Shown piece by piece: positions 9,596 through 64,000 of a stretch of DNA of 64,000 nt. The notes under the pieces were generated by a model. That model worked only from the letters and a program-made list of their open reading frames with translations. It had not been told where the DNA came from and ran no database searches. The stretch is from an uncultured Clostridia bacterium (lineage in GTDB: Bacteria > Bacillota > Clostridia > Christensenellales > Borkfalkiaceae). A program made the position numbers and the translations under genes. The DNA lies in the NCBI GenBank assembly GCA_934271265.1, contig CAKQRE010000016.1, positions 21,135 through 85,134 on the forward strand. Reading direction: 5' to 3'. The first letter of the stretch is position 1. Every line of letters starts with the position of its first letter.

Positions 9596-9628
9596 AAAAA
9601 CAAAGTCGTATTAATATTCTGCAAACGC

Positions 9629-30601: not shown

Positions 30602-30678
30602 AAGTCTTCTATAGGATCTGAAAAATAGAGGCTTTATGTCAAATGTCGGGGTGTTGTAATTAAACGAATGCAATCAAT

Positions 30679-30876
30679 ATGTTTTTCAAACAAATTATAC
30701 TTCATGGCGAATTGCCTTCTGAAGTAAAATTGCCTGCGCATCCGATTGATGTCGGTAATATGACGCAAGCGGAAATCAACGTGGAAATACAGAAAGTTTT
30801 TGACGATGCCAAAAACAATCGGATAAAACCTGCAACCGAAGCTTTTTCAGATATTCGAAAAAAGTATAGCGTATAA
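30679..30876 (+). pseudogene. RelB/DinJ-type antitoxin fragment (N-terminal RHH missing, no toxin partner)
   Basis: FFKQIILHGELPSEVKLP plus a C-terminal ...EIQKVFDDAKNNRIKPATEAFSDIRKKYSV resembles the C-terminal two-thirds of DinJ-like antitoxins. An in-frame stop lies 18 nt upstream. No RBS. Confidence 0.35.
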
Positions 30877-31062
30877 AATATCAGGGGAGCGCGTGTGCTT
30901 GTCAGAATGCTTTGATTCAAGCATTTCCGTTTAAAACAGAATGCATTCGGATGGATAACTGCTTAGAATTCATCAAAGCCTTTTTGCACCTTAAAATTAA
31001 AAAATGTCAGAGAGTTTTCCCCACACCTAAACACTTATTTTAGAACCTGTTCTTCTTAATCA

Positions 31063-38940: not shown

Positions 38941-40197
38941 TCAGTTCTCCGAAACGATTTCGCGATATTCCGAGTTGGAATCTCTGAGAAGCCGTAAAAT
39001 ATACTGTCCGCGCTCTTCGTTTTCGCTGAAGCTGTGCTCGGTCTCCATGGTTTTATCGTAGTTCCAGGCAAACGACAGCTGAACCCTCGTTGCCATCATG
39101 GTTCTGAACATTTCGGACAATTTCGCATACTTTTCCTCGACGGTATCCCCCTGATCGGCATCCGAGGCAAGCACGGAGAATTCCCCTACCATATAAGCTT
39201 TTCCCAGACTTCTGTACTTTTCGACGGAGTTTTTCATAAGTTCGTAAAGGGATAATTCCTTGTCCGCCAATTGATATTCGAAAATATAATTATGCTCGGA
39301 AACGACGTCCATTTTGCCGGGGGCGAAGTCTATGTTCATCTGATGGTGCTGTTCCTCGGTATCCACGAAAGAGAAGGTCCCCGTGGTATGCTGAGCGTAT
39401 TGCGTGGTTCTCAGAATGGCGTTTCCGTTCGAGATCATTCTGCCGTGGGGATCGTTTTTCGCAACGATGTCCGCAAATTCTTCAAACACTTCGATCGCGT
39501 TGCCGGACGTAAGCATCATGCCTTCGGCGTCTTCTTTGCTCATGCCTTCGGCGTCCATCCAGAACTGCGGCCAAAGATCGCAGACGTTATTGACTTCGTT
39601 TCCGAATTCCCAACCGAAAACGGCTTTGCTGTTTTTTAAAAGATTGACGATCTCCGCCGTGTATTCTCTCATGTACCGGCGGGTCTTGCTGTCCTTGTCT
39701 CCCCATGCGATCAACGGCTCGCCATACAGATCCGGAACGCATCTTATATTCCAGAACAGGCTTGGCAGAAGACCGATGTTCAGGGCTTCCGCTTTATCGA
39801 CTATCGCCTTAAGGATCTTTAAAGATTCCTCTTTGTACGTCCCCGACAGATAGGTCATTTCTTTGGCGTAGAACACGCCGCAGTTGAAACGTATGACGGG
39901 TACGCCGTATTCTTTCATGGTTTCGAGCATCGCAAACGGGATCTCGGTGCTGAAATTATCGTGCAGCCCTTTGTTGAACAGACTGTAACAGTTTGCGCCG
40001 ATCCCGTAGAAGGGGGCGCCGTTCAGGGTCATGACTCCGTTTTCGACTCGTAACCCGTAGTTTTCGTTCTGTTCCCAATAATTCGTTTTGGTTTCCATGG
40101 GGGTCGACTCCTTACCGGTTTCGCCTGAGTTTGCCGAGCACGACGTGAACGTGATTGCCGAAACGACGGCGACGATCAGCGATAATATTTTTTTCAT
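38941..40197 (-). CDS. clan GH-A (GH5-like) glycoside hydrolase lipoprotein
   Basis: Lipobox TFTSC. WEFGNE acid/base-like motif. 418 aa. Confidence 0.6.
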   Translation of the reverse strand: MKKILSLIVAVVSAITFTSCSANSGETGKESTPMETKTNYWEQNENYGLRVENGVMTLNGAPFYGIGANCYSLFNKGLHDNFSTEIPFAMLETMKEYGVPVIRFNCGVFYAKEMTYLSGTYKEESLKILKAIVDKAEALNIGLLPSLFWNIRCVPDLYGEPLIAWGDKDSKTRRYMREYTAEIVNLLKNSKAVFGWEFGNEVNNVCDLWPQFWMDAEGMSKEDAEGMMLTSGNAIEVFEEFADIVAKNDPHGRMISNGNAILRTTQYAQHTTGTFSFVDTEEQHHQMNIDFAPGKMDVVSEHNYIFEYQLADKELSLYELMKNSVEKYRSLGKAYMVGEFSVLASDADQGDTVEEKYAKLSEMFRTMMATRVQLSFAWNYDKTMETEHSFSENEERGQYILRLLRDSNSEYREIVSEN

Positions 40198-40308
40198 CTT
40201 TTTCTCCTGTTCCCGTTATTTGTCGTCTCCGATCAGAAGCTCTTCCGGCGGGATCTTTGATTTTCCGCCGTAAGAACGGTCGATGACGATAAATTACGGG
40301 TATATCAA

Positions 40309-41187
40309 TTATTTTTTTGTTTTCGTTGTTCCCTCCGGTTCTCTCCGGCGGGAGTATTCCCTGGGCGCGCATCCGTAATGAGCCCGGAACGCTTTATAAA
40401 AATAACTCAGGGAAGAGTAACCGACCTTTGACGCGACGTCCAGAGTGGAAAGGTTGCTGTTTCTCAGTAAAAACGCCGCGTATTTTATTTTGACCCTGAC
40501 GAAATAATTGTTGAGCGTCATCCCTAATTCCTGTTTGAAAAGCCTGTTGATATGCACCTGCGAAAAGGGGATATCCCTGCATATTTCCTGAAGGGATAAG
40601 GGCATGTTTTCCACGGAATTCAGTTTTGCTATCAGCTTTTTTATTTCGGGAGAACCCTGTTGGCGAAGGGAAGCGATCTCGTTGTGATTCTGTTCGAGAT
40701 AATACTGGAAATAAACGAATTTCAATGCGTCCAGCGTTAAAAATTTGATCGTGACTTCCTTCAGCGGCTCTTCGCCGTTCAGAAAGAGTTTATCGATCAG
40801 TTTCGTGAAACTTTTATACTGATAGTTGCTCAGGTGAATGCACAGGTTGTCCGTCGTGTTTTGTAAAAAGCAATAAAAATCAGCTCCTATCAGGTTGGTG
40901 ACGATCTCCATTTTTTCCTTGGTCAGCATGATATTCAGGAACTGAGCTTCCTGCCCGTCGCTTTTGTAAAAAACGTGAACGTCATCGGGGCGTACGATGA
41001 ACATATCGCTTTTTTTCAGAACGCATTCCCTGTCGTTTATATATTGGATCATCGTCCCTTCCGTAACGATAAAGATCTCCCAATAATTATGCGTGTGCAA
41101 ATCATTATATAAAGCGTTGAAATAATGGAAGTCTACGCCGGATTCGGGAGACGAGAAATCCGAATGGTAATCGCAGAAGCGAATCAT
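40309..41187 (-). CDS. AraC-family transcriptional regulator
   Basis: Start MIRFCDY with RBS GGAGG. Cupin-like N-terminus and a C-terminal double HTH (...VASKVGYSSLSYFYKAFRAHYGCAPREY). Confidence 0.85.
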   Translation of the reverse strand: MIRFCDYHSDFSSPESGVDFHYFNALYNDLHTHNYWEIFIVTEGTMIQYINDRECVLKKSDMFIVRPDDVHVFYKSDGQEAQFLNIMLTKEKMEIVTNLIGADFYCFLQNTTDNLCIHLSNYQYKSFTKLIDKLFLNGEEPLKEVTIKFLTLDALKFVYFQYYLEQNHNEIASLRQQGSPEIKKLIAKLNSVENMPLSLQEICRDIPFSQVHINRLFKQELGMTLNNYFVRVKIKYAAFLLRNSNLSTLDVASKVGYSSLSYFYKAFRAHYGCAPREYSRRREPEGTTKTKK

Positions 41188-41393
41188 GTTGCTTCCTCCA
41201 AGGGGTTGATTCCGGGTAAAAGCAAGCCTGCTGTTTACGATTTCAATTATAGCACAATCGCATGCGGATAAACAATAATAGAGAATGGGTAAATTCGAAA
41301 ATGATAAAATAAAGCAAAAGATTGAAATCATAACGCAAGACATTTCACATTTATTGTGATATAATTCAAAACAGAAAAAACGAGAGGAACTTT

Positions 41394-43817
41394 ATGAGTA
41401 AGATTGTTTTGTCGGATTGGACCTTAGACGTCGACGGTGGGAGTATATCGGTAAAAGTCCCGGGGGATGTAATAAACGACCTTACTCAAAGCGGTATCAT
41501 AGAGGATTGCCTGTACGGCGATAATTACAAAAAGGCACTTTGGGTGCACGATCGCGATTGGTTGTATTCCGTAAACTTCGAACTGTCGGAAGAAGATCTG
41601 AAGGAAGAGACCCTTACGGTAACTTTCGACAGCGTAGATACTTTTTCCGAAGTGTATCTGAACGGAAAAGAGGTCGGAAAAACGGATAATATGTTCCGTT
41701 CCTTCACTTTCGATATCAAATCCGCGGCGGTCAAAGGCGTCAACAGGTTATCGGTGAAGCTTATTTCTATAAGGAAAAAAGAAAAAGAACTGCATAACGA
41801 CAAGTATTTTGCGTGTTTTTCGACGGACAGGATCTTCATCAGAAAGCCTCAGTGCCATTTCGGCTGGGACTGGGCGCCGAATTTCCCGGGTACCGGCATT
41901 TGCGGCAGAGTGACCGTTTGCGCTTCGCCCCGGGGAAAGATATCCGGGGTGCAGATCCTTACGGATAATTCGGGCGCGGTATCCTTTATCGTGGAAACGG
42001 ATTATAATAACCGCAATCCGGGAGAGAAAAAGATCGAGGGCGACGAGATCGTCGTGAAAACGGAGCGCGCCCCCGGCTTCGGTTTAAATAACGCAATCGA
42101 AAAAAAAGCGATCGTCTTCGGCGACAAAAACCTTCTGAACCTATATGTGGACGACGTAGAACTGTGGTATCCGAACGGATACGGCGATCAGCCGTTGTAC
42201 GCATACGAAATTTCCCTTGTGAGAAACGGCGTTACGATCGATCGGAAAACGGGAAAATATGCGTTCAGGAAATTAGAGGTAAGAGAAACTCCGTGCGGGG
42301 ACAGACGCCGTTTCGATATTTATTGCAACGATACGAGGATCAGGGTGATCGGTTCGAACTGGGTTCCCGCGTCGATGTTCACCGGGCTGATCGATCATGA
42401 CAGATACCGGAAGTTGTTGCGGATCGCAAAGAATGCCGGATTCGATATGCTGAGGGTATGGGGCGGCGGACTTTACGAAAAGGATGACTTTTACGATCTT
42501 TGCGACGAATACGGGATCATGATCTGGCAGGATTTCATGTTTTCCTGCAGCATTATTCCGGACGATCAGCATTGGTTCGAGCAGGCGTTGGAGCCGGAAC
42601 TGAGAGAGCAGATCATGCGTCTTCGCAATCATCCGTCGATCGCGGTCTGGTGCGGCGGAAACGAAATGACGAATTGCTTCCGCTATAGTTATCCCGGTTA
42701 CGGAATGCACGTGTCGCACGTGATCCTTCCCGGGCTTTGCTATGAACTTGACGGGACGAGAAAATACGTATGGGACTCTCCGTATTCCTGTACCGGGATC
42801 GGAAACGACGTTACGAGCGGGGACTGTCACAACGCCACGCTTACCGGCGCGACCGTAGAGGATATGCTGGCATACCGCGAACAGCAATGGGGAAAAGAAA
42901 ACAATTTCGACACGGAATGCGCCGTTCTCGGGATGTGCAGACCGCGCAGTTTCAGGAAATTCATGCCGAAGGATAAGATCTGGCCTCAGAACGAAGTGTG
43001 GGAGGATCGCCTTTCGTGCAATCCGTATGACGAATACATAGCGTCGTTCACGGAAAGGATCAATTTATCGGTCAACGCGCTTTTCGGCGGATACGACGAT
43101 TTTTACGATTATACGAAAAAGTCTATGACCGTACACGCGGAAGTGCTGAAGGACGAGATAAAGTATTACAGATCGTTTGAATTCAACACGGGTCTGATGA
43201 ACTGGATGTTCAACGATATATGGGGAAATTCGACCTGGGCGGTCGTCGACTATTATCTTGAAAAAAAGCCTGCGTATTACGCAATGAAGCGGGCTGGCAG
43301 ACGGCAGGGCTTGGGTATCGTTTACAGGAAGGACGGGTATTTTATCTCCGTGGTAAACGATTGTAAAACGGAATGGAGCGGAACCCTTCGTTTCTCGCAC
43401 CGGAGTTTGGACGGGAAAATTTACGATCGGTCTGAACGCACGATAACTTTGGCTCCGTTTACTCAGCAGAACATACCGATCTCGTTTGATAAAACGATCA
43501 GGGATTCTTTCCTGTACGTCGAGTTCGGCGGCGAATGCGACGTTTATTTTTACGATATGTGGAAGGACAAGCGGTTCCGGACGGATCTGAGCGTCGATAA
43601 GAAGGTAAAAGGAAACGTTGCCGACGTGACCGTAAAGGCGAACGAGTTTGCGAGAATGGTTTTCATAGATCTTCCGGACGGGGTTTTATGCGATATGGAG
43701 GACAATTATTTCGATCTGCCGAAAGGGGAGCAGAAAACCGTTCGTATCGTTGCGGACAGGGAGATCGCCGAGCGGGATATCACCGTCAGGACGTTTGCGG
43801 ACGAATGGAGCGAATAA
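41394..43817 (+). CDS. GH2-family beta-mannosidase-like glycoside hydrolase
   Basis: 807 aa. N-terminal W.L....VPG.V..DL pattern. WQDFMF and GGNE catalytic-region motifs. Confidence 0.75.
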   Translation: MSKIVLSDWTLDVDGGSISVKVPGDVINDLTQSGIIEDCLYGDNYKKALWVHDRDWLYSVNFELSEEDLKEETLTVTFDSVDTFSEVYLNGKEVGKTDNMFRSFTFDIKSAAVKGVNRLSVKLISIRKKEKELHNDKYFACFSTDRIFIRKPQCHFGWDWAPNFPGTGICGRVTVCASPRGKISGVQILTDNSGAVSFIVETDYNNRNPGEKKIEGDEIVVKTERAPGFGLNNAIEKKAIVFGDKNLLNLYVDDVELWYPNGYGDQPLYAYEISLVRNGVTIDRKTGKYAFRKLEVRETPCGDRRRFDIYCNDTRIRVIGSNWVPASMFTGLIDHDRYRKLLRIAKNAGFDMLRVWGGGLYEKDDFYDLCDEYGIMIWQDFMFSCSIIPDDQHWFEQALEPELREQIMRLRNHPSIAVWCGGNEMTNCFRYSYPGYGMHVSHVILPGLCYELDGTRKYVWDSPYSCTGIGNDVTSGDCHNATLTGATVEDMLAYREQQWGKENNFDTECAVLGMCRPRSFRKFMPKDKIWPQNEVWEDRLSCNPYDEYIASFTERINLSVNALFGGYDDFYDYTKKSMTVHAEVLKDEIKYYRSFEFNTGLMNWMFNDIWGNSTWAVVDYYLEKKPAYYAMKRAGRRQGLGIVYRKDGYFISVVNDCKTEWSGTLRFSHRSLDGKIYDRSERTITLAPFTQQNIPISFDKTIRDSFLYVEFGGECDVYFYDMWKDKRFRTDLSVDKKVKGNVADVTVKANEFARMVFIDLPDGVLCDMEDNYFDLPKGEQKTVRIVADREIAERDITVRTFADEWSE

Positions 43818-53807: not shown

Positions 53808-53832
53808 CGTTACCGATCATAATTACGACAGA

Positions 53833-53864
53833 AAAGGCGATAGAATCAACGTTCTATCGCCTTT
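53833..53864 (+). terminator. rho-independent terminator ending the glycan locus
   Basis: AAAGGCGATAGAA-tcaac-TTCTATCGCCTTT. Confidence 0.65.
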
Positions 53865-53982
53865 CATCATATTTTGTTTTGTTTTCTTTGTAAATTCTCC
53901 GTTGTTACGGGGCTGACTAAGACACGCGATCGAAACAATCTTTTCGGCTTGTTCTGCTTTTACGATTATGCCTGCAACGCCG

Positions 53983-55512
53983 TTAATGCAAATAAAAAGG
54001 AACCGCGGGTTCGACCACGGTTCCTTTTGGTGGACACATTGGTAAGATGTCCGAACAATTAGCGTAATTATTATCCCGACTATCGGTATCGTCCGAATCG
54101 TCGGGATTTTTGCGTTCCGTGAAGTTGAAATATATCTCGATTTTATCGTCATATACGATAATACTTTTAACGAGAATATGAAGTAAGAAACGCGGTTCTT
54201 GTCGCAATGAGTGCGTCAGATATTCAACGATTTCCTGTTTCGTCAATCTTTGGCTTTCACCATATTGTGCGATTACAATTTTATCGTTAAGCGTTTGTTT
54301 GCGTTCTTCCAACTCTTTCATACGGCGTTGAGTAGTTTCGGTTATAATACCTTGCTCGATGGCTCGCATAATGTTATCGAGTGCTTTTTGTACTTCGTCG
54401 CGGTCGCGTTTCAGCAAATCGACGACGGAATGTTCTTTTAATTTATCGTTATAGACAGCCATTACACAATCGGCAAGATAATTTATACGACTTTCAGTAC
54501 CGAAAACTTTGATAATGATTTCCAGAATTAAATTCTCAAATTCATCTTTTTTCAAGACGGAAGCGTGGCAAATATGCTTTTTCTTTCTGCCCATACATTT
54601 GTAGTAGTAAAATTTCGTTCCGTTTTTGCTCGTGCCGCTATCTCCTTGATAATGAGTGCCGCAACAGCCGCAAGTGATTTTGTTTCTTAACAGGAAAAGC
54701 GATTCAGGGCTACGCGAGCCGATTTTGTTTGCCGCAAGAATTGCTTGAACGCCGTCGAAAACTTCTTTGTCTACAATTTGCGGGTAGATATTGTCATAAA
54801 CTCCGTCGTCGTACCTTGCGATACCTACATATTTTTCTAATCGAAGAAAGTTGTAAATAGTGTTTTCGGCAAACGGTTTTCCGCGATACAAAATTCCTTG
54901 TTCGGTAAGGTTGTTAATAATCTCTCTTACGATTTTACCCGAAAAATATTCTTTGAAAATATATCTGACAACGTTTGCCTGTTCTTCGTTTATGAAAACT
55001 CGTTTATCCTTGTAGTAATAACCGTATGGCGGTCTGCCGCCGCTACAAAACCCTTTTTGACGGCTTTCGTGCAAACCGCGGCGTATTTTTTGCGAAAGTT
55101 CGGCGGAATAGTATTCAGCCAACCCGATATACATATTTTCGAGTATGATACCGTCGAGGTTTTTCGTTCCGTCGATATTTTCGCTCATTCTTTGTGTGGC
55201 AGATATAAGCATTTTCTTGTTCTTTTTCAATTTTTGCTTGTTGACGGCGATTTCGATAGAATTTCTACCGAAACGGTCGATAGCGTAAACAAGAACGATA
55301 TCCCACATAACGGGTTTTTCGGCGTCTTTCAGCATTTGTTGAAACGCGGGACGGTTGTCGTTTGTTCCCGTCATAGCCCTGTCGATATAAGTATCGAGGA
55401 CTTGCAATCCGTTTTGTTTTGCAAAATCGTTGCATATTCGCAACTGACCTTCGATGGATTGCTCGGTTTGTCGCTCACTTGAATAGCGGGCGTAAATTAC
55501 ACAATTTTTCAT
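53983..55512 (-). CDS. large serine recombinase
   Basis: MKNCVIYARYSSERQTEQSIEGQ resolvase catalytic-Ser region, recombinase domain and zinc ribbon CGCCG...YYYKC. 509 aa. Confidence 0.9.
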   Translation of the reverse strand: MKNCVIYARYSSERQTEQSIEGQLRICNDFAKQNGLQVLDTYIDRAMTGTNDNRPAFQQMLKDAEKPVMWDIVLVYAIDRFGRNSIEIAVNKQKLKKNKKMLISATQRMSENIDGTKNLDGIILENMYIGLAEYYSAELSQKIRRGLHESRQKGFCSGGRPPYGYYYKDKRVFINEEQANVVRYIFKEYFSGKIVREIINNLTEQGILYRGKPFAENTIYNFLRLEKYVGIARYDDGVYDNIYPQIVDKEVFDGVQAILAANKIGSRSPESLFLLRNKITCGCCGTHYQGDSGTSKNGTKFYYYKCMGRKKKHICHASVLKKDEFENLILEIIIKVFGTESRINYLADCVMAVYNDKLKEHSVVDLLKRDRDEVQKALDNIMRAIEQGIITETTQRRMKELEERKQTLNDKIVIAQYGESQRLTKQEIVEYLTHSLRQEPRFLLHILVKSIIVYDDKIEIYFNFTERKNPDDSDDTDSRDNNYANCSDILPMCPPKGTVVEPAVPFYLH

Positions 55513-55545
55513 TTCGATTGTTCCTTTTCTATTTTTTTTGTTTCA

Positions 55546-55588
55546 AGTATAAACCTGCAATTATTCAATAGCCAGAACCACGGCGTGC
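55546..55588 (-). promoter_or_regulatory. element-specific promoter-like motif, copy C (upstream of the recombinase)
   Basis: Minus strand: CACGCCGTGGTTCTGG, 21-nt spacer, TATACT. It lies 34 nt upstream of ATG 55512. Confidence 0.5.
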
Positions 55589-55811
55589 CGAATTTGTATC
55601 GAATTTGTCCGTCTATAAATTCCGAACGTGAACGGATACAAGCAGTATTGAAACCGCAAAGCGGTATATTTGAAACTTTTTTTGTCGATTTGTCTTTTTT
55701 CTTTCGACACCCCGAACTCAATCGGGAAAGCAACGCAGTCTGTCAAGGAAAAAGAAAAAAATATTGCGTTTTTATTTTTCCTTTTAATGTTTTACGCGAT
55801 AATTTTTTCCC

Positions 55812-55839
55812 TTGACAGCAAGTGCTTTTCTGATACGAT
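55812..55839 (+). promoter_or_regulatory. sigma-70 promoter (TTGACA-16-TGaTACGAT)
   Basis: Consensus -35 and an extended -10. It would give a ~255-nt leader before ORF 56098. Confidence 0.45.
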
Positions 55840-56023
55840 CCAACCCAAAAATAGAGAAAGAAAAAGTGTAAGTCGTAAAGTTGTCCGAGAAAACAAACGG
55901 CAAATCTTCTCGTTTCGATAATGGTTACATTGAAATCACAATCGGGTTACGTTCGTGTTTGTTTCAGGTTGCCATAGAGTTGCTTTTATCTCGCGTTTCC
56001 GTTACAAAGAAGTCCTTTTTGCT

Positions 56024-56065
56024 CACGCCGATGTTCTGGTTTTTCAAAGAAACACGGTGTATAGT
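56024..56065 (+). promoter_or_regulatory. element-specific promoter-like motif, copy A
   Basis: CACGCCGATGTTCTGG, 20-nt spacer, TATAGT. It lies 32 nt upstream of ATG 56098 (RBS AAGGAGG). Confidence 0.5.
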
Positions 56066-56097
56066 GGTGGCAGAAAACAAAAAGGAGGTAACGTCGG

Positions 56098-56286
56098 ATG
56101 AAAGAAATCGTATTGAACGATAATCCAACGAAAAAACGTATCTATATCGAAAACACTGAACCGGATTTCTCAAAAATACCGAAAAAAGATATAGATTTAT
56201 TCGTTTCGTTGTTAGGCAATAAAATGTACGAACATTTCAAAAACCGTCGAAAGCATAAATCGAGAGATTCCCCACGAAACGCGTAA
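56098..56286 (+). CDS. hypothetical small protein
   Basis: 62 aa with a strong RBS AAAAGGAGG 7 nt upstream. Confidence 0.45.
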   Translation: MKEIVLNDNPTKKRIYIENTEPDFSKIPKKDIDLFVSLLGNKMYEHFKNRRKHKSRDSPRNA

Positions 56287-56351
56287 AACAAACGACCTGT
56301 GCATAAATTCGTACACCCTGAAAAATTTCACGAAAACGGGCTTACTACTCC

Positions 56352-56380
56352 TTGACAATATGAATTGAAACGAGTATAAT
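56352..56380 (+). promoter_or_regulatory. consensus sigma-70 promoter of the LexA-like gene
   Basis: TTGACA, 17-nt spacer, TATAAT. An imperfect palindrome GAAATATATGTTTC (56395-56408) lies downstream. Confidence 0.55.
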
Positions 56381-56430
56381 AAAAACACTTAAATGAAATA
56401 TATGTTTCAGATAGGTTGTGGGGTTCTTTT

Positions 56431-57036
56431 ATGCGCAGTAAGAACGAAGAAGTCTTAAACAGAATAATCGAGATAATAAACAACAGTTATTTTCAAGAAA
56501 GCGAAACGCCTTCGATGAAAGAAATTGCCGACGAATTGAATATAAGCGTGCCTACCGTATGCAGATATATCACCGAACTTATAGAACGCGGCGAGATTGA
56601 AAAAAGCAGTAGATTTCGCGGAGTTCAGACGGCAAAGATAGCAAGGCTAAAAGCGGAAGCGAAATGCCCCGTTGTAGGCGAGATTGCTTGCGGCGTACCT
56701 TTATTGGCAGAAGAAAATATCGAATCGTATATTACTCTTTCGCGGGAATATTTAGGTTCGGGCAAATTTTTTATTCTGCGAGCGAAAGGCAACAGTATGA
56801 TAAACGCAGGCATATCCGACGGCGATTTAGTGGTGGTAAGGCAACAGGAAACAGCCGAAGAAGGTCAAATCGTAGTTGCTCTTATCGACAACGAAGCGAC
56901 TTTAAAACGCTATTATCTCGATAATCGGCATAAACGCATTCGATTACACCCTGAAAACGATAAAATGGAAGATATGTTTTATGAAACGATTTCCATTCAA
57001 GGCGTTGCGGTCAAGGTTATAAAAGACTTACAATAA
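56431..57036 (+). CDS. LexA-like S24 peptidase repressor
   Basis: N-terminal wHTH (SMKEIADELNISVPTVCRYITELIERGEI). Hinge PVVGEIACGVPLLA. S24 catalytic GNSM (Ser) and TLKRYY (Lys). 201 aa from ATG 56431. Confidence 0.8.
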   Translation: MRSKNEEVLNRIIEIINNSYFQESETPSMKEIADELNISVPTVCRYITELIERGEIEKSSRFRGVQTAKIARLKAEAKCPVVGEIACGVPLLAEENIESYITLSREYLGSGKFFILRAKGNSMINAGISDGDLVVVRQQETAEEGQIVVALIDNEATLKRYYLDNRHKRIRLHPENDKMEDMFYETISIQGVAVKVIKDLQ

Positions 57037-57186
57037 TTTTGGTAATAATCCGAGCGGAATGCCCCGTCCGCAATGATTTTTTACAGGTACAAAAGATGAT
57101 TTACCGCGATAACGGATTTCCCGACCGTATCAAGCAGTAAATCAAATACAAATCTTTATGTGCTATGGGAAAAAAGGAGTATATGT

Positions 57187-57384
57187 ATGCAAAATACGAC
57201 TTTCAAACGCGGCTCTGCCGGACTAAGAAAGGAATGTCCGGACTGTCACAGGTATTTTACGGCACAACTTAATGCAGACGGCGATTACGTCGGCAAGTGT
57301 CCGTTTTGCGGCTCGTGGTATTTCGAGCAATTCAGAAAGAACGAGCATTTTATAAAAACGGTACGCAAAAATACGAATTTTTAA
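57187..57384 (+). CDS. zinc-ribbon small protein
   Basis: CPDC...CPFC pairs. RBS AAGGAG 7 nt upstream of ATG 57187. Confidence 0.45.
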   Translation: MQNTTFKRGSAGLRKECPDCHRYFTAQLNADGDYVGKCPFCGSWYFEQFRKNEHFIKTVRKNTNF

Positions 57385-57603
57385 CAACTAAATTAAAAAA
57401 CGAAAACGTCTATCCCGACAAAGCGAGGTCGAACTGAAACAGCGTTCAAGATAAAGCCTTGTTCCCCGTCGGAATAGGTAAGATTCGATAGGAGAAAATG
57501 TCCCCGAACCGAATGTAAACCTTTGAAAAAGTTTACAAACCGCGCGGGGGCATTTTTTATGCTCCGGGGCGGAAAAATCTGAATTTTCAGGAGCATTTTA
57601 TAT

Positions 57604-57903
57604 ATGAAAAGTTTTGAAGCAATCCGAGAAGATTTGCGAAACATAAGGTATTACTACTCGCGTAAAGAACAGATGAGCGCGACGGCAAAAATAGTGGGCG
57701 AAAGCAATGTTTTGAAAACGGTAAATGAATATAACGAAATAGTCTGCCAAGCGCCGCCCAAACTTTATGAATTATATTTTTGTATGTATGTAGAAAACAA
57801 AACACAGGAATCGGCAGCCGAAGAATTCGGTTATGCCCGCGAACACGTTACAAGGCTGAACAAACAGTTGTTACGTTTTATCCAAAATCATTTAGCAGCA
57901 TAA
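57604..57903 (+). CDS. sigma region-4 / ArpU-RinA-like transcriptional regulator
   Basis: 99 aa. C-terminal KTQESAAEEFGYAREHVTRLNKQLLRFI is a region-4-type HTH. Confidence 0.5.
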   Translation: MKSFEAIREDLRNIRYYYSRKEQMSATAKIVGESNVLKTVNEYNEIVCQAPPKLYELYFCMYVENKTQESAAEEFGYAREHVTRLNKQLLRFIQNHLAA

Positions 57904-57918
57904 AGGAGATGAAAAACC

Positions 57919-58167
57919 ATGAAAAATTTAATACCGTATTTTGTTATCGGCGCAGATAACGTTTACAGAACGAAACATTATATCGTAAAGCAAAGTATCA
58001 AAAAGATCGAACATTTAACGGAAGATAATATGCTCGTCAGCCATGACACGTTTTATTTAAGAACGCCGCATAGGGATATGCTTTACAATATGTACTACGC
58101 AGACAAGAAAAATAAAAACGGCAAAAGATTTCCGTATACGACTTACACGCGAAGGTATGTCAACTAA
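57919..58167 (+). CDS. hypothetical protein
   Basis: 82 aa, RBS AAGGAG, followed by a terminator. Confidence 0.4.
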   Translation: MKNLIPYFVIGADNVYRTKHYIVKQSIKKIEHLTEDNMLVSHDTFYLRTPHRDMLYNMYYADKKNKNGKRFPYTTYTRRYVN

Positions 58168-58169
58168 CG

Positions 58170-58198
58170 AAAAGCAAGGCTTAACCGCCTTGCTTTTT
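58170..58198 (+). terminator. rho-independent terminator
   Basis: AAAAGCAAGGC-ttaacc-GCCTTGCTTTT. Confidence 0.7.
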
Positions 58199-58305
58199 CT
58201 ATGCCTAAATTGCTATGTTTCGTTGTGGTTACATTTATGTTCCAAGCCACCGTTTTCCCTGTTACAATCGCGTTTTTTGGCGGTTGCAAAGATGTCCTTT
58301 TTGCT

Positions 58306-58347
58306 CACGCGGGTGTTCTGGCTTTTTGAGTTTTCGGGGTTTATACT
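58306..58347 (+). promoter_or_regulatory. element-specific promoter-like motif, copy B
   Basis: CACGCGGGTGTTCTGG, 20-nt spacer, TATACT. It sits between the terminator and the operon starting at 58561. Confidence 0.5.
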
Positions 58348-58560
58348 GTATGCGTAATCGAAAGCGAGAACAGATTTCCGACTGTTGCTTGCGGACTTTT
58401 GCAAAGATAAAGGCGGCCGCCTTCCGACAATAAGTCGCACGAAGCAGAACGTTTCAAAACTCGTAAAGATTACAAAAAGTACAATTTAATATTTTTTCAT
58501 TCGCTGCGCTAACGGCAACACGGGCAAATTACAAAAATCTAAATTATAGGGAGTTTACAA

Positions 58561-58872
58561 ATGGCAAAAGAAAGCAAAGCCGCTGCTAACAAAGGCGGCG
58601 AAAAAAGAGAACGCAGGTGGAGCGTGCCTACAAAACGCGCCAAAGGTTACGCGGAAGAACGCAAGGCAAAAGTCCATCAGCACGGAGAAAAAGAAGGTAA
58701 AGAACTTACCGACTACGAGGCAGGTCTTCGCTCCGGTTATTTACAATGTCAGAGTGACCATAGCGGACTGTACAAGTACAAAAAGGCGCTCGACGAAGGC
58801 AAAAGCAAAGAAGAAGCAACAAGAATTTCCAGAGAAATCGGAAGCAAAAAAACAAATCACAAGGAGAAATAA
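58561..58872 (+). CDS. basic hypothetical protein
   Basis: 103 aa, K/R/E-rich, RBS AGGGAG. Confidence 0.5.
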   Translation: MAKESKAAANKGGEKRERRWSVPTKRAKGYAEERKAKVHQHGEKEGKELTDYEAGLRSGYLQCQSDHSGLYKYKKALDEGKSKEEATRISREIGSKKTNHKEK

Positions 58873-58876
58873 AAAT

Positions 58877-59230
58877 ATGGCAGAAAACAAAATTAAAAAC
58901 CCTATCAAGGTTGAAAGAGAAACTTTTGAAATGGACGACAAACAGTATTTTTCTTACTTTATCAGGGGAACGGTTCGCGGTAAAGACGTAAAAGTTGCAA
59001 TCGTACCCCCTGATAAGGGCGGTTACGTTGTGTTGGATATCGTATTTGACGGAGCAATGGAAGCCGAACTCGTTGTTATTCCTTACGAAATGAAGGATGA
59101 TAACGGCAAAACGATTAAAGGCAACACCTATGCGGTTCGTTCTTACGACGATGACGGTACAGTTTACGAATGTAAAGTAAAACCCTTCCGTTATTCCGAC
59201 AAAAACATTCTCGATATGCTTTTGAGGTAA
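58877..59230 (+). CDS. hypothetical protein
   Basis: ATG 58877 follows AAGGAG (58861-66). 117 aa, predicted mostly beta. The ORF-track upstream extension overlaps the previous gene. Confidence 0.5.
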   Translation: MAENKIKNPIKVERETFEMDDKQYFSYFIRGTVRGKDVKVAIVPPDKGGYVVLDIVFDGAMEAELVVIPYEMKDDNGKTIKGNTYAVRSYDDDGTVYECKVKPFRYSDKNILDMLLR

Positions 59231-59262
59231 TTATAAAAATAAAAAAAGAGAGGTAAAACGAA

Positions 59263-60369
59263 ATGAAAAATAATAAACTTTTCAAAATTCTTATGAGTGG
59301 AACGCTCTGTATCGCAGCCGTAGTCGGAAGCGTTTTCGGACTTGTGGCTTGCGGAAATAAAAACGACGATTCTTCGCAAAAGTCGGCGTATAAGCCGATT
59401 ATCGACGATATTGTCGGTGAAGCAGATAATGAAAATGGCGTCGGCAATGTGGATTATGACATAGGCAATACGCCCAACATTAAACTTATGGCAGTAAGAA
59501 AGTTTGCCGCTAACGGAAGTCTTGAAGAAAGTGAACTCGAAGTAGCGGCAACGATTACGCCTGAAAACGCCACGAACAAGGCTGTTGATTGGAGCGTTGC
59601 GTTCCAGAATGCAAGTTCCGCGTGGGCAAGCGGTAAAAACGTTAGCGATTACGTTACGGTAACACCCGATTCAGACGGTTCGCTTAAAGCGACGGTTAAA
59701 AATCTTAAAGCGTTCGGCGAAAAAATCGTCGTTACGGTAACGTCGAGGGCAAATGCGGCTGTGAAAGCGACTATCGTCTGCGATTACAACAGAAAAGTTA
59801 CGGCTATTTCTTCCGCAAACCTTGTAAAAGGCGGCGCGTCGGTTGCATTTAACAATATCGTGATAGGCGGACTCGGCAATGCAAGCGACAACGCGGCATA
59901 CACCATAGGTCATACTTCCGCATTTTCGGATTATACGGTAGCGGGAACGGAAAAAATTACGAGCAAAATCAAGTTCAACGACGCTTTCGTTGACGGCGTA
60001 AAGACCTTGCTTGCAACCGAATATAAAACCGTTTGGGAAGATTGTATGAGAACGGCTTCCGCAGTGGATAAAACCGCATACGATTTCTCTACTATGGCAG
60101 GTTTAATGCTGACGAAAGACAACTCTACCGCAACCAAGAATAAGTTGGCCGCAGGCGTTCTGAACGCTTGTATGGTAGCGGTGGATTCGTGGATAAAGGC
60201 TAATCCTACCACGGCTTTTGCGACCGTTACGGTAAAATCGGATATGCTTAACGCTTCTAACGTAAGTTATCAGGATATATCCAAAGATTTCTCGCTTATG
60301 TTTGCGGCAAACGGACATTATATCCCCGTAACCGGCGTAACCGTAACTCCGGAAACTATTATCTGGTAA
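59263..60369 (+). CDS. lipoprotein with Big_2-like Ig domain
   Basis: Lipobox GLVAC. ATITPENATNKAVDWSV...VTVTPDSDGSLKATV resembles bacterial Ig-like group 2. Confidence 0.6.
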   Translation: MKNNKLFKILMSGTLCIAAVVGSVFGLVACGNKNDDSSQKSAYKPIIDDIVGEADNENGVGNVDYDIGNTPNIKLMAVRKFAANGSLEESELEVAATITPENATNKAVDWSVAFQNASSAWASGKNVSDYVTVTPDSDGSLKATVKNLKAFGEKIVVTVTSRANAAVKATIVCDYNRKVTAISSANLVKGGASVAFNNIVIGGLGNASDNAAYTIGHTSAFSDYTVAGTEKITSKIKFNDAFVDGVKTLLATEYKTVWEDCMRTASAVDKTAYDFSTMAGLMLTKDNSTATKNKLAAGVLNACMVAVDSWIKANPTTAFATVTVKSDMLNASNVSYQDISKDFSLMFAANGHYIPVTGVTVTPETIIW

Positions 60370-60375
60370 TAGATT

Positions 60376-60558
60376 ATGAGAAAATCTATGGCAGGGCGAA
60401 GTGTTCTTCGCAACATAATTACGGTGGTAATGTCGCTGTCCGTAGTCGTTCTGGCAAGCGGAGCGTTTGCCTTTCTTGCCAAGAAAGTATGGTCTCCTTC
60501 GGATAACGAAATTCCGGTTAAAGAAATAATCGTCGATACGTTGACGATAGATTTTTAG
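60376..60558 (+). CDS. small single-pass membrane protein
   Basis: 60 aa with a TM segment IITVVMSLSVVVLASGAFAFL. Weak RBS. Confidence 0.35.
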   Translation: MRKSMAGRSVLRNIITVVMSLSVVVLASGAFAFLAKKVWSPSDNEIPVKEIIVDTLTIDF

Positions 60559-60622
60559 CCAAAGTAAAGGGGGCTTGAAATACAGTCCCCTTTAAATAAA
60601 AAATAAATTATGGAGGTATTAA

Positions 60623-62185
60623 ATGCAAAACTTAAAACACGGCGAATATGCCGTTAATCGACATATAGCCGCACTTATAACGTTTATTCTGCTTATAACG
60701 AGTATCCTTACGATATTCGCCTCTTGCGAGAAAACGGAAGAAAAATCAACGATTCAGAACAACGATTTAGCATTTGAAGATAACAGCCTTAATGCGAATA
60801 TGTTGTTTTCGCCTATTAAACTGAATGCGGCAGATTCTTTGGCTTTGGCTTCTTACACCGTTAAAGCAACAATTCAGCCCGCAACGGCAAGTAATCAACA
60901 GGTGGATTGGAAAGTTGAATGGGCGTTTAACGCGACGTTAAAAAATCAAAAGATAAGCGATTATCTTTCCGTAACGCCCGACAGCGACGGTTCGCTTTCG
61001 GCAAGAGTCGATTGTTATAAATCGTTCATAGGAAATACTGCTGTATTGTCTGCAACGACGAGGAATGGCAAAATAAAAGGAACTTGCAATATCGTGTTCA
61101 TAGGTAAAGCAACGGACATTGCCGTTGAAAGCAAGACTGTTAAAAAATCGACAACTGAACGCGGTGAATATTACGAGGTTTACCCTAATAAAACGCATAC
61201 GTTCGATATAAATCTCTCAAATATATTCAACAGCGTTGCCTCACCGAAATTTACCGTAACGCGAGGCGGTAACGGTTCTGTGTATTTCGGAACGGAATAT
61301 GCAGCCCCCGACATAACGTCTTACAAAGATATAACGAAAAAAAACATAAATGAATTCGCGGACAGGTTTATAACTTCGGCAAGCGTTTCCGGTTCTACTC
61401 TCACCATAAAAACCGGCGATAAAAAACTTGAAGAATTTTATTCTTCGTCGCAGCCCGACGGCGCGTTATGGGGAACTACATATTACGACAGATATATCGA
61501 AGTCGATGAATTTGATTTACTTATGGATGACGAATACGATAAAAAAGCCGAGCAAAACGTGCAATTGCTCAAATCCTGTTATTTTTATGTAACCGTAAAA
61601 GACGAAGTGAGCGGACTTTCCGAAACGATAAAATTATTCTTTGTGGACGCCCCGAAACCGCTTATAAATTATACAACCGATTTAACGCCTACGACGACAG
61701 CCGAACGCGGAACGTTTTATCAATTACAGCCGAAAAAGACTTACACGTTTAATCTTTCGGTTGAAAATGCGGAAAACCCGACATTCTCCGCTGTCAGAAC
61801 GGGTACGGGAAACGTATATTTCGGTACGGAGTATGCTGCTGCGGATGTTACCACGTTTTCGGACATTACAAAGAAAAATCTTAATTCTTTGGTAAATCAG
61901 TTTATCACATCGGCTACGATCTCAAACGGAGTTCTTACCATAACTACGGGAGATAAAGATCTGAACAGTTATTATTCGTCATCTAAAATGGACGACGCTA
62001 TGTGGGGGACATCGTATTATGACAGATATGTTTTCGAGGATGAATTCGATATGGTCGGCGGAACGGACTTTGCCGAAAAATCCAAAGAAAACATAGAACT
62101 TGTGAAGTCGTGTTATTTTTCGGTCACGATAGTCGTAAAAAGCGACGGCGTAAGTTCTTCGAAAGCAATCAGATTCTTTATATAA
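60623..62185 (+). CDS. lipoprotein with a Big_2-like domain and an internal ~180-aa tandem duplication
   Basis: Lipobox IFASC. ATIQPATASNQQVDWKV...VTPDSDGSLSARV. Residues ~178-345 and ~360-520 are clear repeats (..ERG.(Y/F)Y...P.KT(H/Y)TF...NVYFGTEYAA.D(I/V)T...DITKKN...). Confidence 0.6.
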   Translation: MQNLKHGEYAVNRHIAALITFILLITSILTIFASCEKTEEKSTIQNNDLAFEDNSLNANMLFSPIKLNAADSLALASYTVKATIQPATASNQQVDWKVEWAFNATLKNQKISDYLSVTPDSDGSLSARVDCYKSFIGNTAVLSATTRNGKIKGTCNIVFIGKATDIAVESKTVKKSTTERGEYYEVYPNKTHTFDINLSNIFNSVASPKFTVTRGGNGSVYFGTEYAAPDITSYKDITKKNINEFADRFITSASVSGSTLTIKTGDKKLEEFYSSSQPDGALWGTTYYDRYIEVDEFDLLMDDEYDKKAEQNVQLLKSCYFYVTVKDEVSGLSETIKLFFVDAPKPLINYTTDLTPTTTAERGTFYQLQPKKTYTFNLSVENAENPTFSAVRTGTGNVYFGTEYAAADVTTFSDITKKNLNSLVNQFITSATISNGVLTITTGDKDLNSYYSSSKMDDAMWGTSYYDRYVFEDEFDMVGGTDFAEKSKENIELVKSCYFSVTIVVKSDGVSSSKAIRFFI

Positions 62186-62198
62186 GGCGGTGACGGAT

Positions 62199-62765
62199 AT
62201 GAAAAACAGTTTAATCAAAACAATTTCATACATAGCGGTTCTGCTCGTCATCTCGCTTGTAATCGGGTTCGTAATATTTCTTACAAACGGTTTTACGGAA
62301 GCGCCTAAAAATTTCTATGTGGAAATAGGTAACGAAAGAGTTGCGTCGTCTACGGGCGGCTACACTTTTGAAAAAGGTAAACCTACCGACGTGAAACTGA
62401 TATTTATAGGGAACGGCAGTAAGGAATACTCCGTAAAAATCACACCGAAAACGGATTATGATTTTTCGTTTTTCGCAGACAGCGAAGAAGTAAAATTTTC
62501 GGCTGCGGACGATTATAGCGATTGTTTTAATATCGTAAAAAAGGACAACGGGTTCAGTATTGAGCCGAAAGGAACTTTATATACCGTTCTAATGCGGAAA
62601 TATTCCGAAAAAGATATTAAGATTGACAAATCGGCAATTCCCGACGGCGATATGTTTACGCTCGAAATTAAAGCCGCGTCAGCCGAAGCCACTGTCAAGA
62701 TAAATTTCAAAGTGCCTAATCCCGAGGCTGAAATCGTAATAGATCCGACGGAGATAATTATTTGA
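62199..62765 (+). CDS. N-terminally anchored membrane protein
   Basis: ATG 62199, 8 nt after AAGGCGG. TM segment ISYIAVLLVISLVIGFVIFL. Confidence 0.5.
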   Translation: MKNSLIKTISYIAVLLVISLVIGFVIFLTNGFTEAPKNFYVEIGNERVASSTGGYTFEKGKPTDVKLIFIGNGSKEYSVKITPKTDYDFSFFADSEEVKFSAADDYSDCFNIVKKDNGFSIEPKGTLYTVLMRKYSEKDIKIDKSAIPDGDMFTLEIKAASAEATVKINFKVPNPEAEIVIDPTEIII

Positions 62766-64000
62766 GATTTATCAAACGATTAGCCGTTTTATGCGCAACG
62801 CTTTGCCTTCTCTTTACGGGAATGCAAAGCACCGCAAATGTGGCTTTTGCGGAAGATAAAACGGCTACCGATGTTCTGGAAGATTTAAGCAGGGATAAGT
62901 CGTTCAATCCGGACAACTATCCGACCAAAACGGACGACTATTCTTTGCAGATAATTCAACTTGCCGAAAGCGTAGATAAAGAACTTTTCGTTTATATCTA
63001 CCAGCCGAGTGGAAAAGCCAAAGACTTCAAAGCGTCGTCTATCAACATTTCGACCACGATAAACGACAACATTTCGTATCTGAATTACAAACTCGAAATG
63101 CTAAATGGTAGCGGCGTGTTTTACAAATACAAAGTTTCGGGACTTACGGTCAAGGACGAAAGCGTGAGATATTACGCTATCAGTTCTATATATCGTCCGT
63201 TCGACGAAAGCATAGATAAACAAGCAAGTGGCGGCAATACCGTTACCGAAGTAAATTACGCAGTCAATAAGCAGTATGCCTTCGGTTCAATCAACGGCAA
63301 ACCGTATGTAAATTGCGTGGATATAGAAACCATCGTCGTTACGGATAAATTCGTGGGCTTTGTAAGGTATAAAGACGGTTTTAAACTATACGTTGGAGCG
63401 TGCGACAGCCATTTCGTGGCGTTCAACACGGACAAGCCCATAGACAAACTCTTGGAGGCGGACGTGTATTACACAACGCAAAGTTACGATTGGTCTTCTG
63501 CTCCCTTTGTCGGAGTAAAAGAAACTTTCGGGGATAAAGCGGACAAATACGCCTATCTCAAATACACGGATAAAGTCGAACATACCGGTGACGGCTTATT
63601 TGCGGGAACGTATAAGTGGGACAGAATTCAGACGATTGACGACTTTATAAAAGGCGAAAACCGCGAGAATATCTACCACGGCGCAGTCCTTGACGTAAAG
63701 ACTTCATCGAAACTGACGGACGAAGCCCTGACCGAACTCAAAGGAAAGAAATGGGTATTGCGTTTTACAGAAACAAGTTACTCTTTAAGCGGTTATTCGA
63801 CAACCGGTTCTACGTTTGAAAGTTATACGCTCGTGGGCGACGTTACCATACTTCGATTGAAGTTTGAAACGGACGGCATAACCTACAACTTGGGCGTTAT
63901 AGACAACAAGCAATCGGGCAGCAAAGATCCGTCCAACGAAACGGACATCGACATAAGTCTGAACAAGCGCGGAAAGATGATTTTGTATCTCTTGATGCTC
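62762..64000 (+). CDS. secreted protein, 3'-partial (absent from the ORF track)
   Basis: My translation from TTG 62762 (GGAG 8 nt upstream; TTGA overlap with the previous stop) stays open for 413 codons to the window edge. Signal peptide RFIKRLAVLCATLCLLFTGMQSTANVAFA. Confidence 0.6.
   Translation, partial: MRFIKRLAVLCATLCLLFTGMQSTANVAFAEDKTATDVLEDLSRDKSFNPDNYPTKTDDYSLQIIQLAESVDKELFVYIYQPSGKAKDFKASSINISTTINDNISYLNYKLEMLNGSGVFYKYKVSGLTVKDESVRYYAISSIYRPFDESIDKQASGGNTVTEVNYAVNKQYAFGSINGKPYVNCVDIETIVVTDKFVGFVRYKDGFKLYVGACDSHFVAFNTDKPIDKLLEADVYYTTQSYDWSSAPFVGVKETFGDKADKYAYLKYTDKVEHTGDGLFAGTYKWDRIQTIDDFIKGENRENIYHGAVLDVKTSSKLTDEALTELKGKKWVLRFTETSYSLSGYSTTGSTFESYTLVGDVTILRLKFETDGITYNLGVIDNKQSGSKDPSNETDIDISLNKRGKMILYLLML

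Follow-up and report, generated by a model that had tools for sequence, protein, structure and literature searches.

A family of integrative elements in gut Clostridia whose conserved operon of exported proteins may belong to a module for single-stranded DNA export

Introduction

How does a mobile element of gut bacteria spread when it encodes an integrase, an SOS-type repressor and a set of exported proteins whose core looks like neither a known phage particle nor a known conjugation machine? The question, which is a testable one, is raised by a 64,000-nucleotide stretch of DNA from an uncultured Clostridia bacterium (contig CAKQRE010000016.1, positions 21,135 to 85,134; the window), in which positions 54028-64000 are the left ~10 kb of an integrative element of ~23 kb, its downstream part being read from near-identical copies. 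An initial annotation, made from the letters of the window, had seen here a recombinase-bounded mobile element with an SOS-type repressor, laid out as neither a standard prophage nor a standard integrative and conjugative element (ICE). Our analysis agrees on both counts, since phage structural and conjugation modules were looked for downstream in complete relatives and were not found there. The operon of exported proteins, together with the genes for an ATPase (p707) and a rolling-circle initiator (Rep) that lie beyond it, is almost certainly the propagation module of the element, because these are the only conserved genes besides those for regulation, integration and establishment. That this module is an unrecognised machine for the export of single-stranded DNA (ssDNA), being either the first ssDNA conjugation system without VirB4 and VirD4 or a virus lineage without a recognisable capsid or Zot-type ATPase, comes near to an even bet. 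The Christensenellaceae, like other uncultured Clostridia related to them, figure prominently in the gut and have been linked to host health, yet to our knowledge gene exchange among these taxa is almost unstudied.

Results

The element belongs to a family for which we found 512 loci in the species genomes of GTDB and, in the literature searches made, no description. Almost all of the best 80 of the 512 loci lie in metagenome-assembled genomes (MAGs) of gut Clostridia (Christensenellaceae, Christensenella, Gallimonas and "Eubacteriales"), and some hosts carry several copies per genome. Synteny was followed by tblastn in 83 loci, of which the ~60 longer ones were mapped (individual loci are referred to by L numbers). 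Most of the longer loci share a syntenic core of p99, p82, p103, p117, one or two paralogous lipoproteins, p188, p471 (or a substitute of ~760 aa), p47, p707 and Rep, and combine it with an integrase of either the serine or the tyrosine type and with downstream cargo that varies. The seven-gene operon, initially regarded as cargo, is instead the most conserved part of the family; judged by this conservation, it is core, and the real cargo slot is 3′ of Rep. A surface or export module of benefit to the host is less likely than an apparatus for the element's own propagation. The contents of the cargo slot, which extends from Rep to the 107-aa gene of an opposite-strand block, turn over between relatives (L013-L092) and include large Flg_new, LRR_5 and PPC surface proteins, restriction-modification systems, AbiH, AAA_21/RloB, a KAP NTPase, a reverse transcriptase, an ImpB polymerase and an Ssp/Dnd-like set. 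The slot of L003 holds IS110.

In relatives including L008 and L013, the order past 64000 is the rest of p471, p47 (a 47-aa membrane protein), p707, Rep, a 1007-aa protein and two small membrane proteins; in the near-identical lineage, the 1007-aa protein 3′ of Rep is secreted and carries PPC repeats. A block on the opposite strand then encodes a 107-aa protein, PcfJ, a fusion of PcfK and MutS_I, small proteins, ArdA and further small proteins. This downstream sequence is inferred from relatives 87-99% identical to the window rather than taken from its contig, and it covers all but ~0.5 kb of this exact lineage. The initial annotation had noted the absence of terminase, portal, capsid, type IV secretion system (T4SS) and replication genes. 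Its first four items hold: the complete relatives of ~23-35 kb contain no terminase, portal, capsid, VirB4 or VirD4, and no T4SS, capsid, portal or terminase family was among the matches listed, which for the 65 clusters of accessory ORFs drawn from 80 loci are 25 of the 50 matched Pfam families. The apparent lack of replication genes, by contrast, arises because the window ends before Rep, whose gene in all relatives comes directly after the point where the window stops. Lysis genes were found neither in L008, L013, L095 and the complete MT835493 nor among the matches listed.

The ATPase p707, ~707 aa long, joins an N-terminal polytopic domain (at least four transmembrane [TM] helices) to a P-loop ATPase domain. 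Its family has the Walker A motif GxMGxGKTT with an invariant lysine, which in the window lineage reads GSMGKKKTT, an ITE Walker-B-like motif, and NQKND and DEQRP motifs. AlphaFold2 (AF2) models cover two core proteins, p707 and p117, and the p707 model reaches a pLDDT of 88.7 and a pTM of 0.80. Its best Foldseek match in BFVD is A0A894JLK1, an unnamed viral protein of 269 aa (E 2.3e-4, probability 1.0); ATV ORF286 comes next (E 0.06), and a poxvirus A32-type packaging protein stands at rank 10 (E 1.5). These neighbors, with STIV2 B204 and HerA in the PDB, link p707 weakly to DNA pumps of the FtsK/HerA/A32 type, and we tentatively read it as a DNA-pump-like ATPase that is anchored in the membrane and forms a new family. 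Pfam searches with p707 and 40 diverse relatives gave no Zot at E≤1 and no VirD4, TcpA or FtsK, with stray AAA matches. There was no PHROG match, no Zot- or pI-named protein among the Foldseek BFVD matches listed and no VirB4 structure among the 50 best Foldseek PDB matches listed, and hhalign of the p707 profile with Orf9 of phage B5, whose gene is itself only presumed to be pI-like, detected no similarity (probability 0.2). Database searches gave 3217 close relatives of p707 and 982 clusters at 50% identity, and none is annotated by Pfam or named beyond "hypothetical."

Rep, a protein of 340 aa, matches PF23343 (REP_ORF2-G2P) at E 2.8e-11 and 1.2e-13, and its motifs F.T.TY, RLHFHG (HUH) and Y..KY.EK are conserved at ≥90% in 67 sequences. 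It is in these respects an HUH rolling-circle initiator of the gpII/ORF2 type, encoded outside the window. Two tyrosines three residues apart are typical of processive initiators of the phiX174/P2 type, such as phiX174 gpA. No MOB-family relaxase was found among the relatives' proteins; the HUH Rep could serve as one, in a MOB_T-like manner, and MOB_T relaxases are Rep_trans-like. Neither an oriT nor a nick site was identified.

Upstream of these genes, all seven co-oriented genes first annotated are present, including the one for a protein longer than 413 aa, which in relatives has 471. The core genes are tightly packed, with overlaps of p188 with p471 and of p47 with p707, and all core ORFs are intact. 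The product of p471 has a signal peptide, an ectodomain of ~370 aa, a C-terminal membrane anchor and a basic tail, and it is the most conserved exported protein, with a mean column identity of 73% over 19 relatives, more conserved than the p707 ATPase. In L090 (5738-8026) and 12 similar loci, p471 is replaced by a ~760-aa protein without a Pfam match. The most variable core gene is p368, at 25-40% identity in relatives. It and p520 had been described as Big_2-type lipoproteins; both have lipoboxes, as that description implies, whereas the Big_2 assignment found no support in Pfam (no match for p368, and E 0.13 at best for p520). Within p520, a segment of ~190 aa is duplicated in tandem (ERGEYYEVYPNKTHTF… and ERGTFYQLQPKKTYTF…), and most relatives have versions of ~340-370 aa. 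The very basic p103 may be a DNA-binding accessory protein, and p117, which AF2 models as a β3-α-β3-α fold (pLDDT 85), could conceivably bind single strands. The exported proteins had been called uncharacterised, and p103, p117, p368, p56, p520, p188 and p471 indeed have no significant match in Pfam, PHROGs or NCBIfam. PDB sequence searches, run with single proteins and with profiles (p707, p117, p471 and Rep), gave no match, and PDB fold searches of the proteins tested gave no significant one. An Rfam scan of 53-64 kb returned nothing.

At the far end of the element, the last ~400 nt between the ArdA block and the tRNA gene fold into an imperfect hairpin of ~270 nt. The hairpin of L095 has a predicted energy of -75 kcal/mol against -37±4 for shuffled sequences (z -10.2; z -9.4 for the other strand), and the terminal 400-nt window gave z from -4.3 to -15 in all seven loci examined, on mononucleotide shuffles that make these values rough. 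Adjacent coding windows were mostly near zero, with 2 of 14 at z -4.5 and -5.9. Structured regions of this kind serve as single-strand origins in rolling-circle plasmids, as minus-strand origins in ssDNA phages and as ssDNA promoters (Frpo) in conjugative leading regions. The ArdA block is opposite in strand to Rep in every longer mapped locus where the block was found, and it could therefore be transcribed directly from the Rep-displaced plus strand in a new cell.

That the element moves between sites is evident from its copies. An exact-protein look-up with p188 found the same protein in 575 assembly blocks and yielded six contigs with element copies ~96-99% (at least 96.7%) identical to the window, whose left flanks differ and consist of unrelated chromosomal genes. 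The left end is sharp, homology among these six independent insertions beginning exactly at 54028 (break 54027/54028); the element therefore starts inside the recombinase ORF and not at 53980, as had been proposed. GC content falls from ~0.50 to 0.39-0.44 past 54000, and a plus-strand terminator was detected at 53833-53864, as the initial annotation had it. Since the recombinase ORF crosses attL and takes its last ~14 codons from the flank, its C-terminal tail and its length vary by insertion site (495-517 aa across L002-L007); in an excised circle the tail would come from the element's right end. There is no long att repeat: the identity amounts to at most 7 bp, TGGTGGA, which attL shares with the 3′ end of the tRNA gene at the element's right junction. 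Around this core, TCCGAACA in the left arm mirrors TGTTCGGA in the right-end arm as an imperfect inverted repeat.

The right end itself is contained in L095, a locus from an exact-DNA metagenome scan whose right part is 87% identical to L008. Its junction falls between GTGTTCGGATAGTCCTTTCT and TGGTGGAG, at the CCA end of a tRNA-Ala gene that is followed by genes for aldose epimerase and MgtE. Six further relatives have a minus-strand tRNA gene (Ser, Leu or Glu) 0.6-1 kb past the ArdA block, again with the junction at the CCA end, which brings to seven the relatives whose right end abuts a tRNA CCA end (tRNA-Ser, -Leu, -Glu and -Ala). The same element-side P arm occurs in L055 (tRNA-Glu) and L095 (tRNA-Ala). 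Because the junctions in relatives sit at CCA ends, the recombinase probably targets the 3′ ends of several tRNA genes and would leave the tRNA gene intact at the right end, and we predict that the window copy ends at ~77,000 (~23 kb), at a tRNA gene beyond the window. The former terminator of that gene would have been moved to the left end, and the minus-strand terminator abutting the element there (Table 1) is probably the one that stood behind the target tRNA gene before the insertion. The base just outside the element is the end of a minus-strand intrinsic-terminator hairpin in the window and likewise in L007 and L004, and in the latter two insertions, too, hairpin and T-run stand directly at the junction. 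No empty site turned up beside the left flank of the window, where the search recovered just the same occupied site.

Several smaller observations concern these ends. The ~195 bp outside the left end (53832-54027), which include two terminator hairpins, are by eye ~85-90% identical to the flanks of L003 and L006, which diverge further out, and are missing from L002, L004 and L007; the stretch may be sequence conserved downstream of tRNA genes, or else what is left of an earlier insertion. Walking to the right by way of ArdA homologues ended in a different, mosaic element. L094 (2275-3591) and L095 (3531-4847) share an ArdA segment of 1.3 kb at 98.9% identity, whereas to its left and right the two elements are unrelated, which points to recent recombination of the establishment block between mobile elements. 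Many MAG contigs (L016, L017, L022, L026, L029, L035 and others) stop 1.4-2 kb past the ATPase gene, just beyond Rep, and L100 stops 54 nt inside the left end. Such assembly breaks fit multi-copy or polymorphic elements, and could alternatively reflect mixed integrated and excised forms.

Among viral and plasmid collections, the family is nearly absent. A tblastn search with p707 found nothing in plasmids and a single match, MT835493, among 50,697 phage records, and in IMG/VR neither p707 nor the 1007-aa protein found anything, an alignment search returning two loci. Positions 10895-46188 of MT835493.1 (L001/L093) are a complete member of 35.3 kb with a tyrosine integrase, 32-bp direct repeats and a GC step. 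The record, labelled 'UNVERIFIED: Bacteriophage sp.' and derived from a human faecal sample from Mexico, is really a bacterial contig, and we rejected it as evidence of encapsidation because host DNA flanks the element on both sides. Its cargo comprises an Ssp/Dnd-like phosphorothioation set (PAPS reductase, DUF4007, a 1202-aa protein and cysteine desulfurase), a PLD-helicase and an SMC-like ATPase.

The left part of the element holds integration and regulatory genes (Table 1), and an ORF check found each of the genes first annotated in its place. The recombinase carries all three defining domains of large serine recombinase integrases. The repressor combines a winged HTH with an S24 autopeptidase in which the translation reveals the GNSM serine, the LKRY lysine and a UmuD-like Cys-Gly cleavage site (between IAC and GVP); by these features it is a member of the autocleaving S24 family of LexA/CI type, with autocleavage predicted. 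A tblastn search recovered it in 26 of the 83 loci. The zinc-ribbon and sigma region-4-like assignments were also borne out, each by weak matches; a homologue of p99 in the window's first AT-rich island matches Sigma70_r4_2 at 4.8e-9. A terminator and promoter proposed ahead of the seven-gene operon (58168-58560) were not reproduced by a consensus scan, and this region instead contains one of two copies of a 44-nt direct repeat. The copies are 89% identical, lie inside a conserved stretch of ~70 nt ending in TATAGT or TATACT, and occur twice per element in all close relatives. This arrangement is probably that of a shared promoter/operator.

Table 1. Features of the element in the window, from its left junction to the window end
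Feature	Position	Strand	Evidence and conservation
Large serine recombinase, 509 aa	53983..55512	-	Pfam Resolvase 1.7e-27, Recombinase 4e-14, Zn_ribbon_recom 1.6e-10
Host-side intrinsic terminator hairpin abutting the left end	53995..54028	-	Terminator scan
attL, P′ arm	54028..54056	+	TGGTGGACACATTGGTAAGATGTCCGAAC; homology start in six insertions
44-nt direct repeat, copy 1	56001..56044	+	Upstream of the 62-aa gene
62-aa protein, first gene of regulatory cluster	56098..56286	+	Gene called in L002-L008; no family match (Pfam, PHROGs)
Sigma-70 consensus promoter before repressor gene	56352..56380	+	TTGACA-17-TATAAT, 12/12 consensus matches
CI/LexA-like repressor, 201 aa (206 aa from alternative start 56416)	56431..57036	+	Peptidase_S24 E 6e-30, HTH_24 2.5e-5
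65-aa zinc-ribbon protein	57187..57384 (alternative start 57160)	+	CPDC...CPFC; weak zinc-ribbon Pfam matches
p99, 99-aa sigma-70 region-4-like/HTH regulator	57604..57903	+	Pfam E 0.005; NCBIfam SigB/F/G 1.2e-4; 41 of 83 loci searched
p82, 82-aa protein	57919..58167	+	47 of 83 loci searched; no family match (Pfam, PHROGs, NCBIfam)
44-nt direct repeat, copy 2	58283..58326	+	Upstream of the core operon (103-aa gene)
p103, 103 aa, very basic, cytoplasmic, first core-operon gene	58561..58872	+	57 of 83 loci searched
p117, 117 aa, cytoplasmic, beta-rich	58877..59230	+	57 of 83 loci searched; 1970 database homologues
p368, 368-aa lipoprotein, paralogue of p520	59263..60369	+	Lipobox LVAC; cross-matches with p520
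p56, 56 aa (60 aa alternative), single-pass membrane protein	60388..60558	+	Hydropathy; gene called in L002-L008
p520, 520-aa lipoprotein	60623..62185	+	Lipobox-like FASC; Big_2-like motif
p188, 188 aa (191 alternative), N-terminal TM anchor, beta-rich	62199..62765	+	Hydropathy; 58 of 83 loci searched
p471, first 413 codons of 471 aa, cut by window end	62762..64000	+	Full length in L007

Discussion

Our tentative preference, at less than even likelihood, is for a self-transmissible element that is induced by the SOS response and whose ssDNA, made by Rep, leaves the cell through a contact-dependent apparatus of a non-canonical type. The anatomy, boundaries, conservation and mobility between sites, the Rep motifs, the ATPase P-loop and the stability of the hairpin are its observed ground, and from them we infer each of the functional steps. 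The S24 repressor would hold two promoters with the same 44-nt element silent until DNA damage leads to its self-cleavage, whereupon the recombinase would excise the element and the HUH Rep would nick it and spin off ssDNA by rolling-circle synthesis. The operon and the next two genes would form an envelope apparatus, made up of p103 and p117 in the cytoplasm, the p368/p520 lipoproteins, p56, p188, p471, p47 and p707, which would export the strand to another cell. In this apparatus p707 would act as a polytopic membrane domain fused to an FtsK/HerA/A32-like P-loop ATPase, and the route would be contact dependent and conjugation-like, without VirB4 and VirD4. In the recipient, the incoming strand would fold into the long terminal hairpin, which may be a single-strand origin or an ssDNA promoter; the opposite-strand block (ArdA, PcfJ and PcfK/MutS_I) would be expressed first, and the recombinase would then insert the element at a tRNA CCA end.

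A conjugation-like route is suggested by the leading-type block of ArdA, PcfJ and PcfK, the surface-protein cargo, the lack of a recognisable coat protein and the near absence of the family from viral collections. The T4SS ICEs of Firmicutes (Tn916, ICEBs1, ICESt3, and the Tcp system of pCW3) likewise have an integrase, an inducible repressor, an HUH-type nickase, surface-protein cargo, ArdA and PcfJ/PcfK-type establishment genes and a set of 8-10 membrane or exported proteins. They differ from the element, in which VirB4, VirD4/FtsK/TcpA, VirB6/VirB8 and hydrolase domains were not detected and the single ATPase is of an unannotated family. The actinomycete ICEs of the pSAM2 type resemble it in architecture alone, with integration at tRNA genes, an integrase, a rolling-circle Rep, one membrane-associated ATPase (in our element at most DNA-pump-like), small membrane proteins and small size; unlike the element, they belong to another host phylum and use TraB, a clear FtsK_SpoIIIE protein that moves double-stranded DNA, whereas p707 lacks an FtsK signal in Pfam and the element has an ssDNA-type leading block and a hairpin.

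Several points weigh against export by such an apparatus. We know of no characterised ssDNA conjugation system that lacks VirB4, and these systems usually have a VirD4/FtsK/TcpA coupling protein and a cell-wall hydrolase as well; Pfam detected no VirB4, coupling protein or wall hydrolase in the element's proteins. The PDB neighbors of p707 found by Foldseek, led by the STIV2 B204 packaging NTPase (E 0.28) and including HerA, are weak (E 0.28-0.9), and p117 had no significant Foldseek match, SSB and nsp9 being among its weak ones. PcfJ-like and ArdA proteins occur in phages too, the Rep family takes its name from the initiators of filamentous phages and plectroviruses, and the gIII-gVI-gI order of these phages is mirrored by that of p471, a small TM protein and a membrane ATPase. 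Our searches turned up no excised circular form, and the junction expected of attP (GTGTTCGGATAGTCCTTTCT-TGGTGGA-CACATTGG) was not present in IMG/VR.

The last of these points bears equally on the leading alternative, a temperate, non-lytic virus with chronic release, either filamentous and inovirus-like or membrane-bound and pleomorphic in the manner of pleolipoviruses and plasmaviruses, which we regard as unlikely. On this account Rep would produce circular ssDNA, p103 and p117 would be coat or chaperone proteins, p707 would be a pI-like extrusion ATPase, and p471, p188 and the lipoproteins would act in the virion or in adsorption. The affinities of the Rep family and of the p471-p47-p707 order named above speak for it, as do the two-tyrosine motif of Rep, the lysogeny-type switch of integrase and S24 repressor, the absence of lysis genes and the viral origin of the best structural neighbors of p707; the long hairpin could be a minus-strand origin. 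Like the Tubulavirales (Inoviridae, Paulinoviridae and Plectroviridae), the element has a PF23343 Rep, a non-lytic gene set, an integrase with a repressor, an anchored secreted protein followed by a small TM protein and a membrane ATPase, and a structured region resembling a single-strand origin. Yet the 41 diverse p707 members have no Zot/pI similarity by Pfam or PHROG, nor is any such protein named among the Foldseek matches, and the ATPase has an N-terminal polytopic domain in place of the single C-terminal-side TM segment of the tubulaviral one. No plausible major coat protein was recognised, p56 and p47, the sole small TM proteins, lacking the acidic-hydrophobic-basic layout, although a divergent coat is possible. 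The genes lie on both strands of an 18-35 kb genome with large cargo and an ArdA/PcfJ block, and IMG/VR holds 2 relatives against 512 in genomes, with the one relative in the phage records, MT835493, lying between host flanks. Likeness to the Pleolipoviridae and Plasmaviridae is one of architecture only: a Rep (in alphapleolipoviruses), an anchored spike-like protein with a signal peptide, small membrane proteins, a P-loop NTPase, proviruses at tRNA genes and a non-lytic habit. There was no sequence similarity in the phage collection, and, in contrast to these viruses, the element has a walled host and a much larger genome.

Quite improbable, in our estimate, is that the element is an integrative mobilisable element (IME) or satellite, with Rep as its relaxase and p707 as a private coupling protein, that travels through a helper's T4SS or virion while its exported proteins serve as surface, adhesion or exclusion factors. 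Streptococcal IMEs reportedly pair rolling-circle-type relaxases with a coupling ATPase of their own, a precedent in its favor, and helpers are plausible in this host, as a classical Mob_Pre IME lies in the same window; the ArdA/PcfJ leading-type block would fit as well. Elements of the Tn4451 type resemble ours in having a large serine recombinase as integrase and several target sites, and differ from it in that ours has an envelope/ATPase operon of 9-10 genes and, where they have a Mob_Pre relaxase, an HUH Rep. What counts against a mobilisable element is that 7-9 exported or membrane genes remain syntenic with Rep and p707 across relatives (p707 being 59-95% identical to that of the window lineage) while cargo turns over, which would be costly if they were not essential. 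The conservation of p471 beyond that of the ATPase, and the lack of a VirD4, TcpA or FtsK signal in p707 by Pfam, point the same way.

A decaying, non-functional remnant is very improbable: direct evidence of excision was not found and many assemblies break at the element, but against this stand intact core ORFs and conserved catalytic motifs, copies 97-99% identical at different sites, several copies in some genomes and an exact p188 protein in 575 assembly blocks. Next to no chance is left for an ordinary tailed prophage or T4SS-type ICE, which the prophage-like recombinase and repressor module and a window that ends inside the operon might have suggested and which we rejected, the sequence downstream in L008, L013, L095 and MT835493 holding just Rep, cargo, the ArdA block and a tRNA gene, with no capsid, portal, terminase or T4SS among the matches listed.

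The integrase, repressor, Rep and ArdA are thus of known families, and a mobile element that integrates at tRNA genes is of a known kind. The core module lacks the features that define inoviruses (pI/Zot), T4SS ICEs (VirB4 and a coupling protein) and tailed phages. Should the core be a transfer machine, it would define a new route of horizontal gene transfer. The family is abundant, uses more than one tRNA gene as an insertion site and has a slot set aside for cargo, in which defence systems and large surface proteins are carried. Current finders of ICEs, plasmids and viruses miss such elements. The p707 ATPase with its Lys289, Rep, p471 and the terminal hairpin offer genes and structures on which the proposal can be tested.

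Additional Observations

The first AT-rich island of the window (5201-11907) is a classical small IME. It encodes a sigma-70 region-4 regulator (6023-6508) 36% identical to p99, a YhcG/DUF1016 nuclease (7005-8027), a Mob_Pre relaxase (8432-9595) and a large serine recombinase of 556 aa (10237-11907) that is 28% identical to the second one. Further dips in GC content, to 0.40-0.46, occur at 30001-31000 and 40001-42000.

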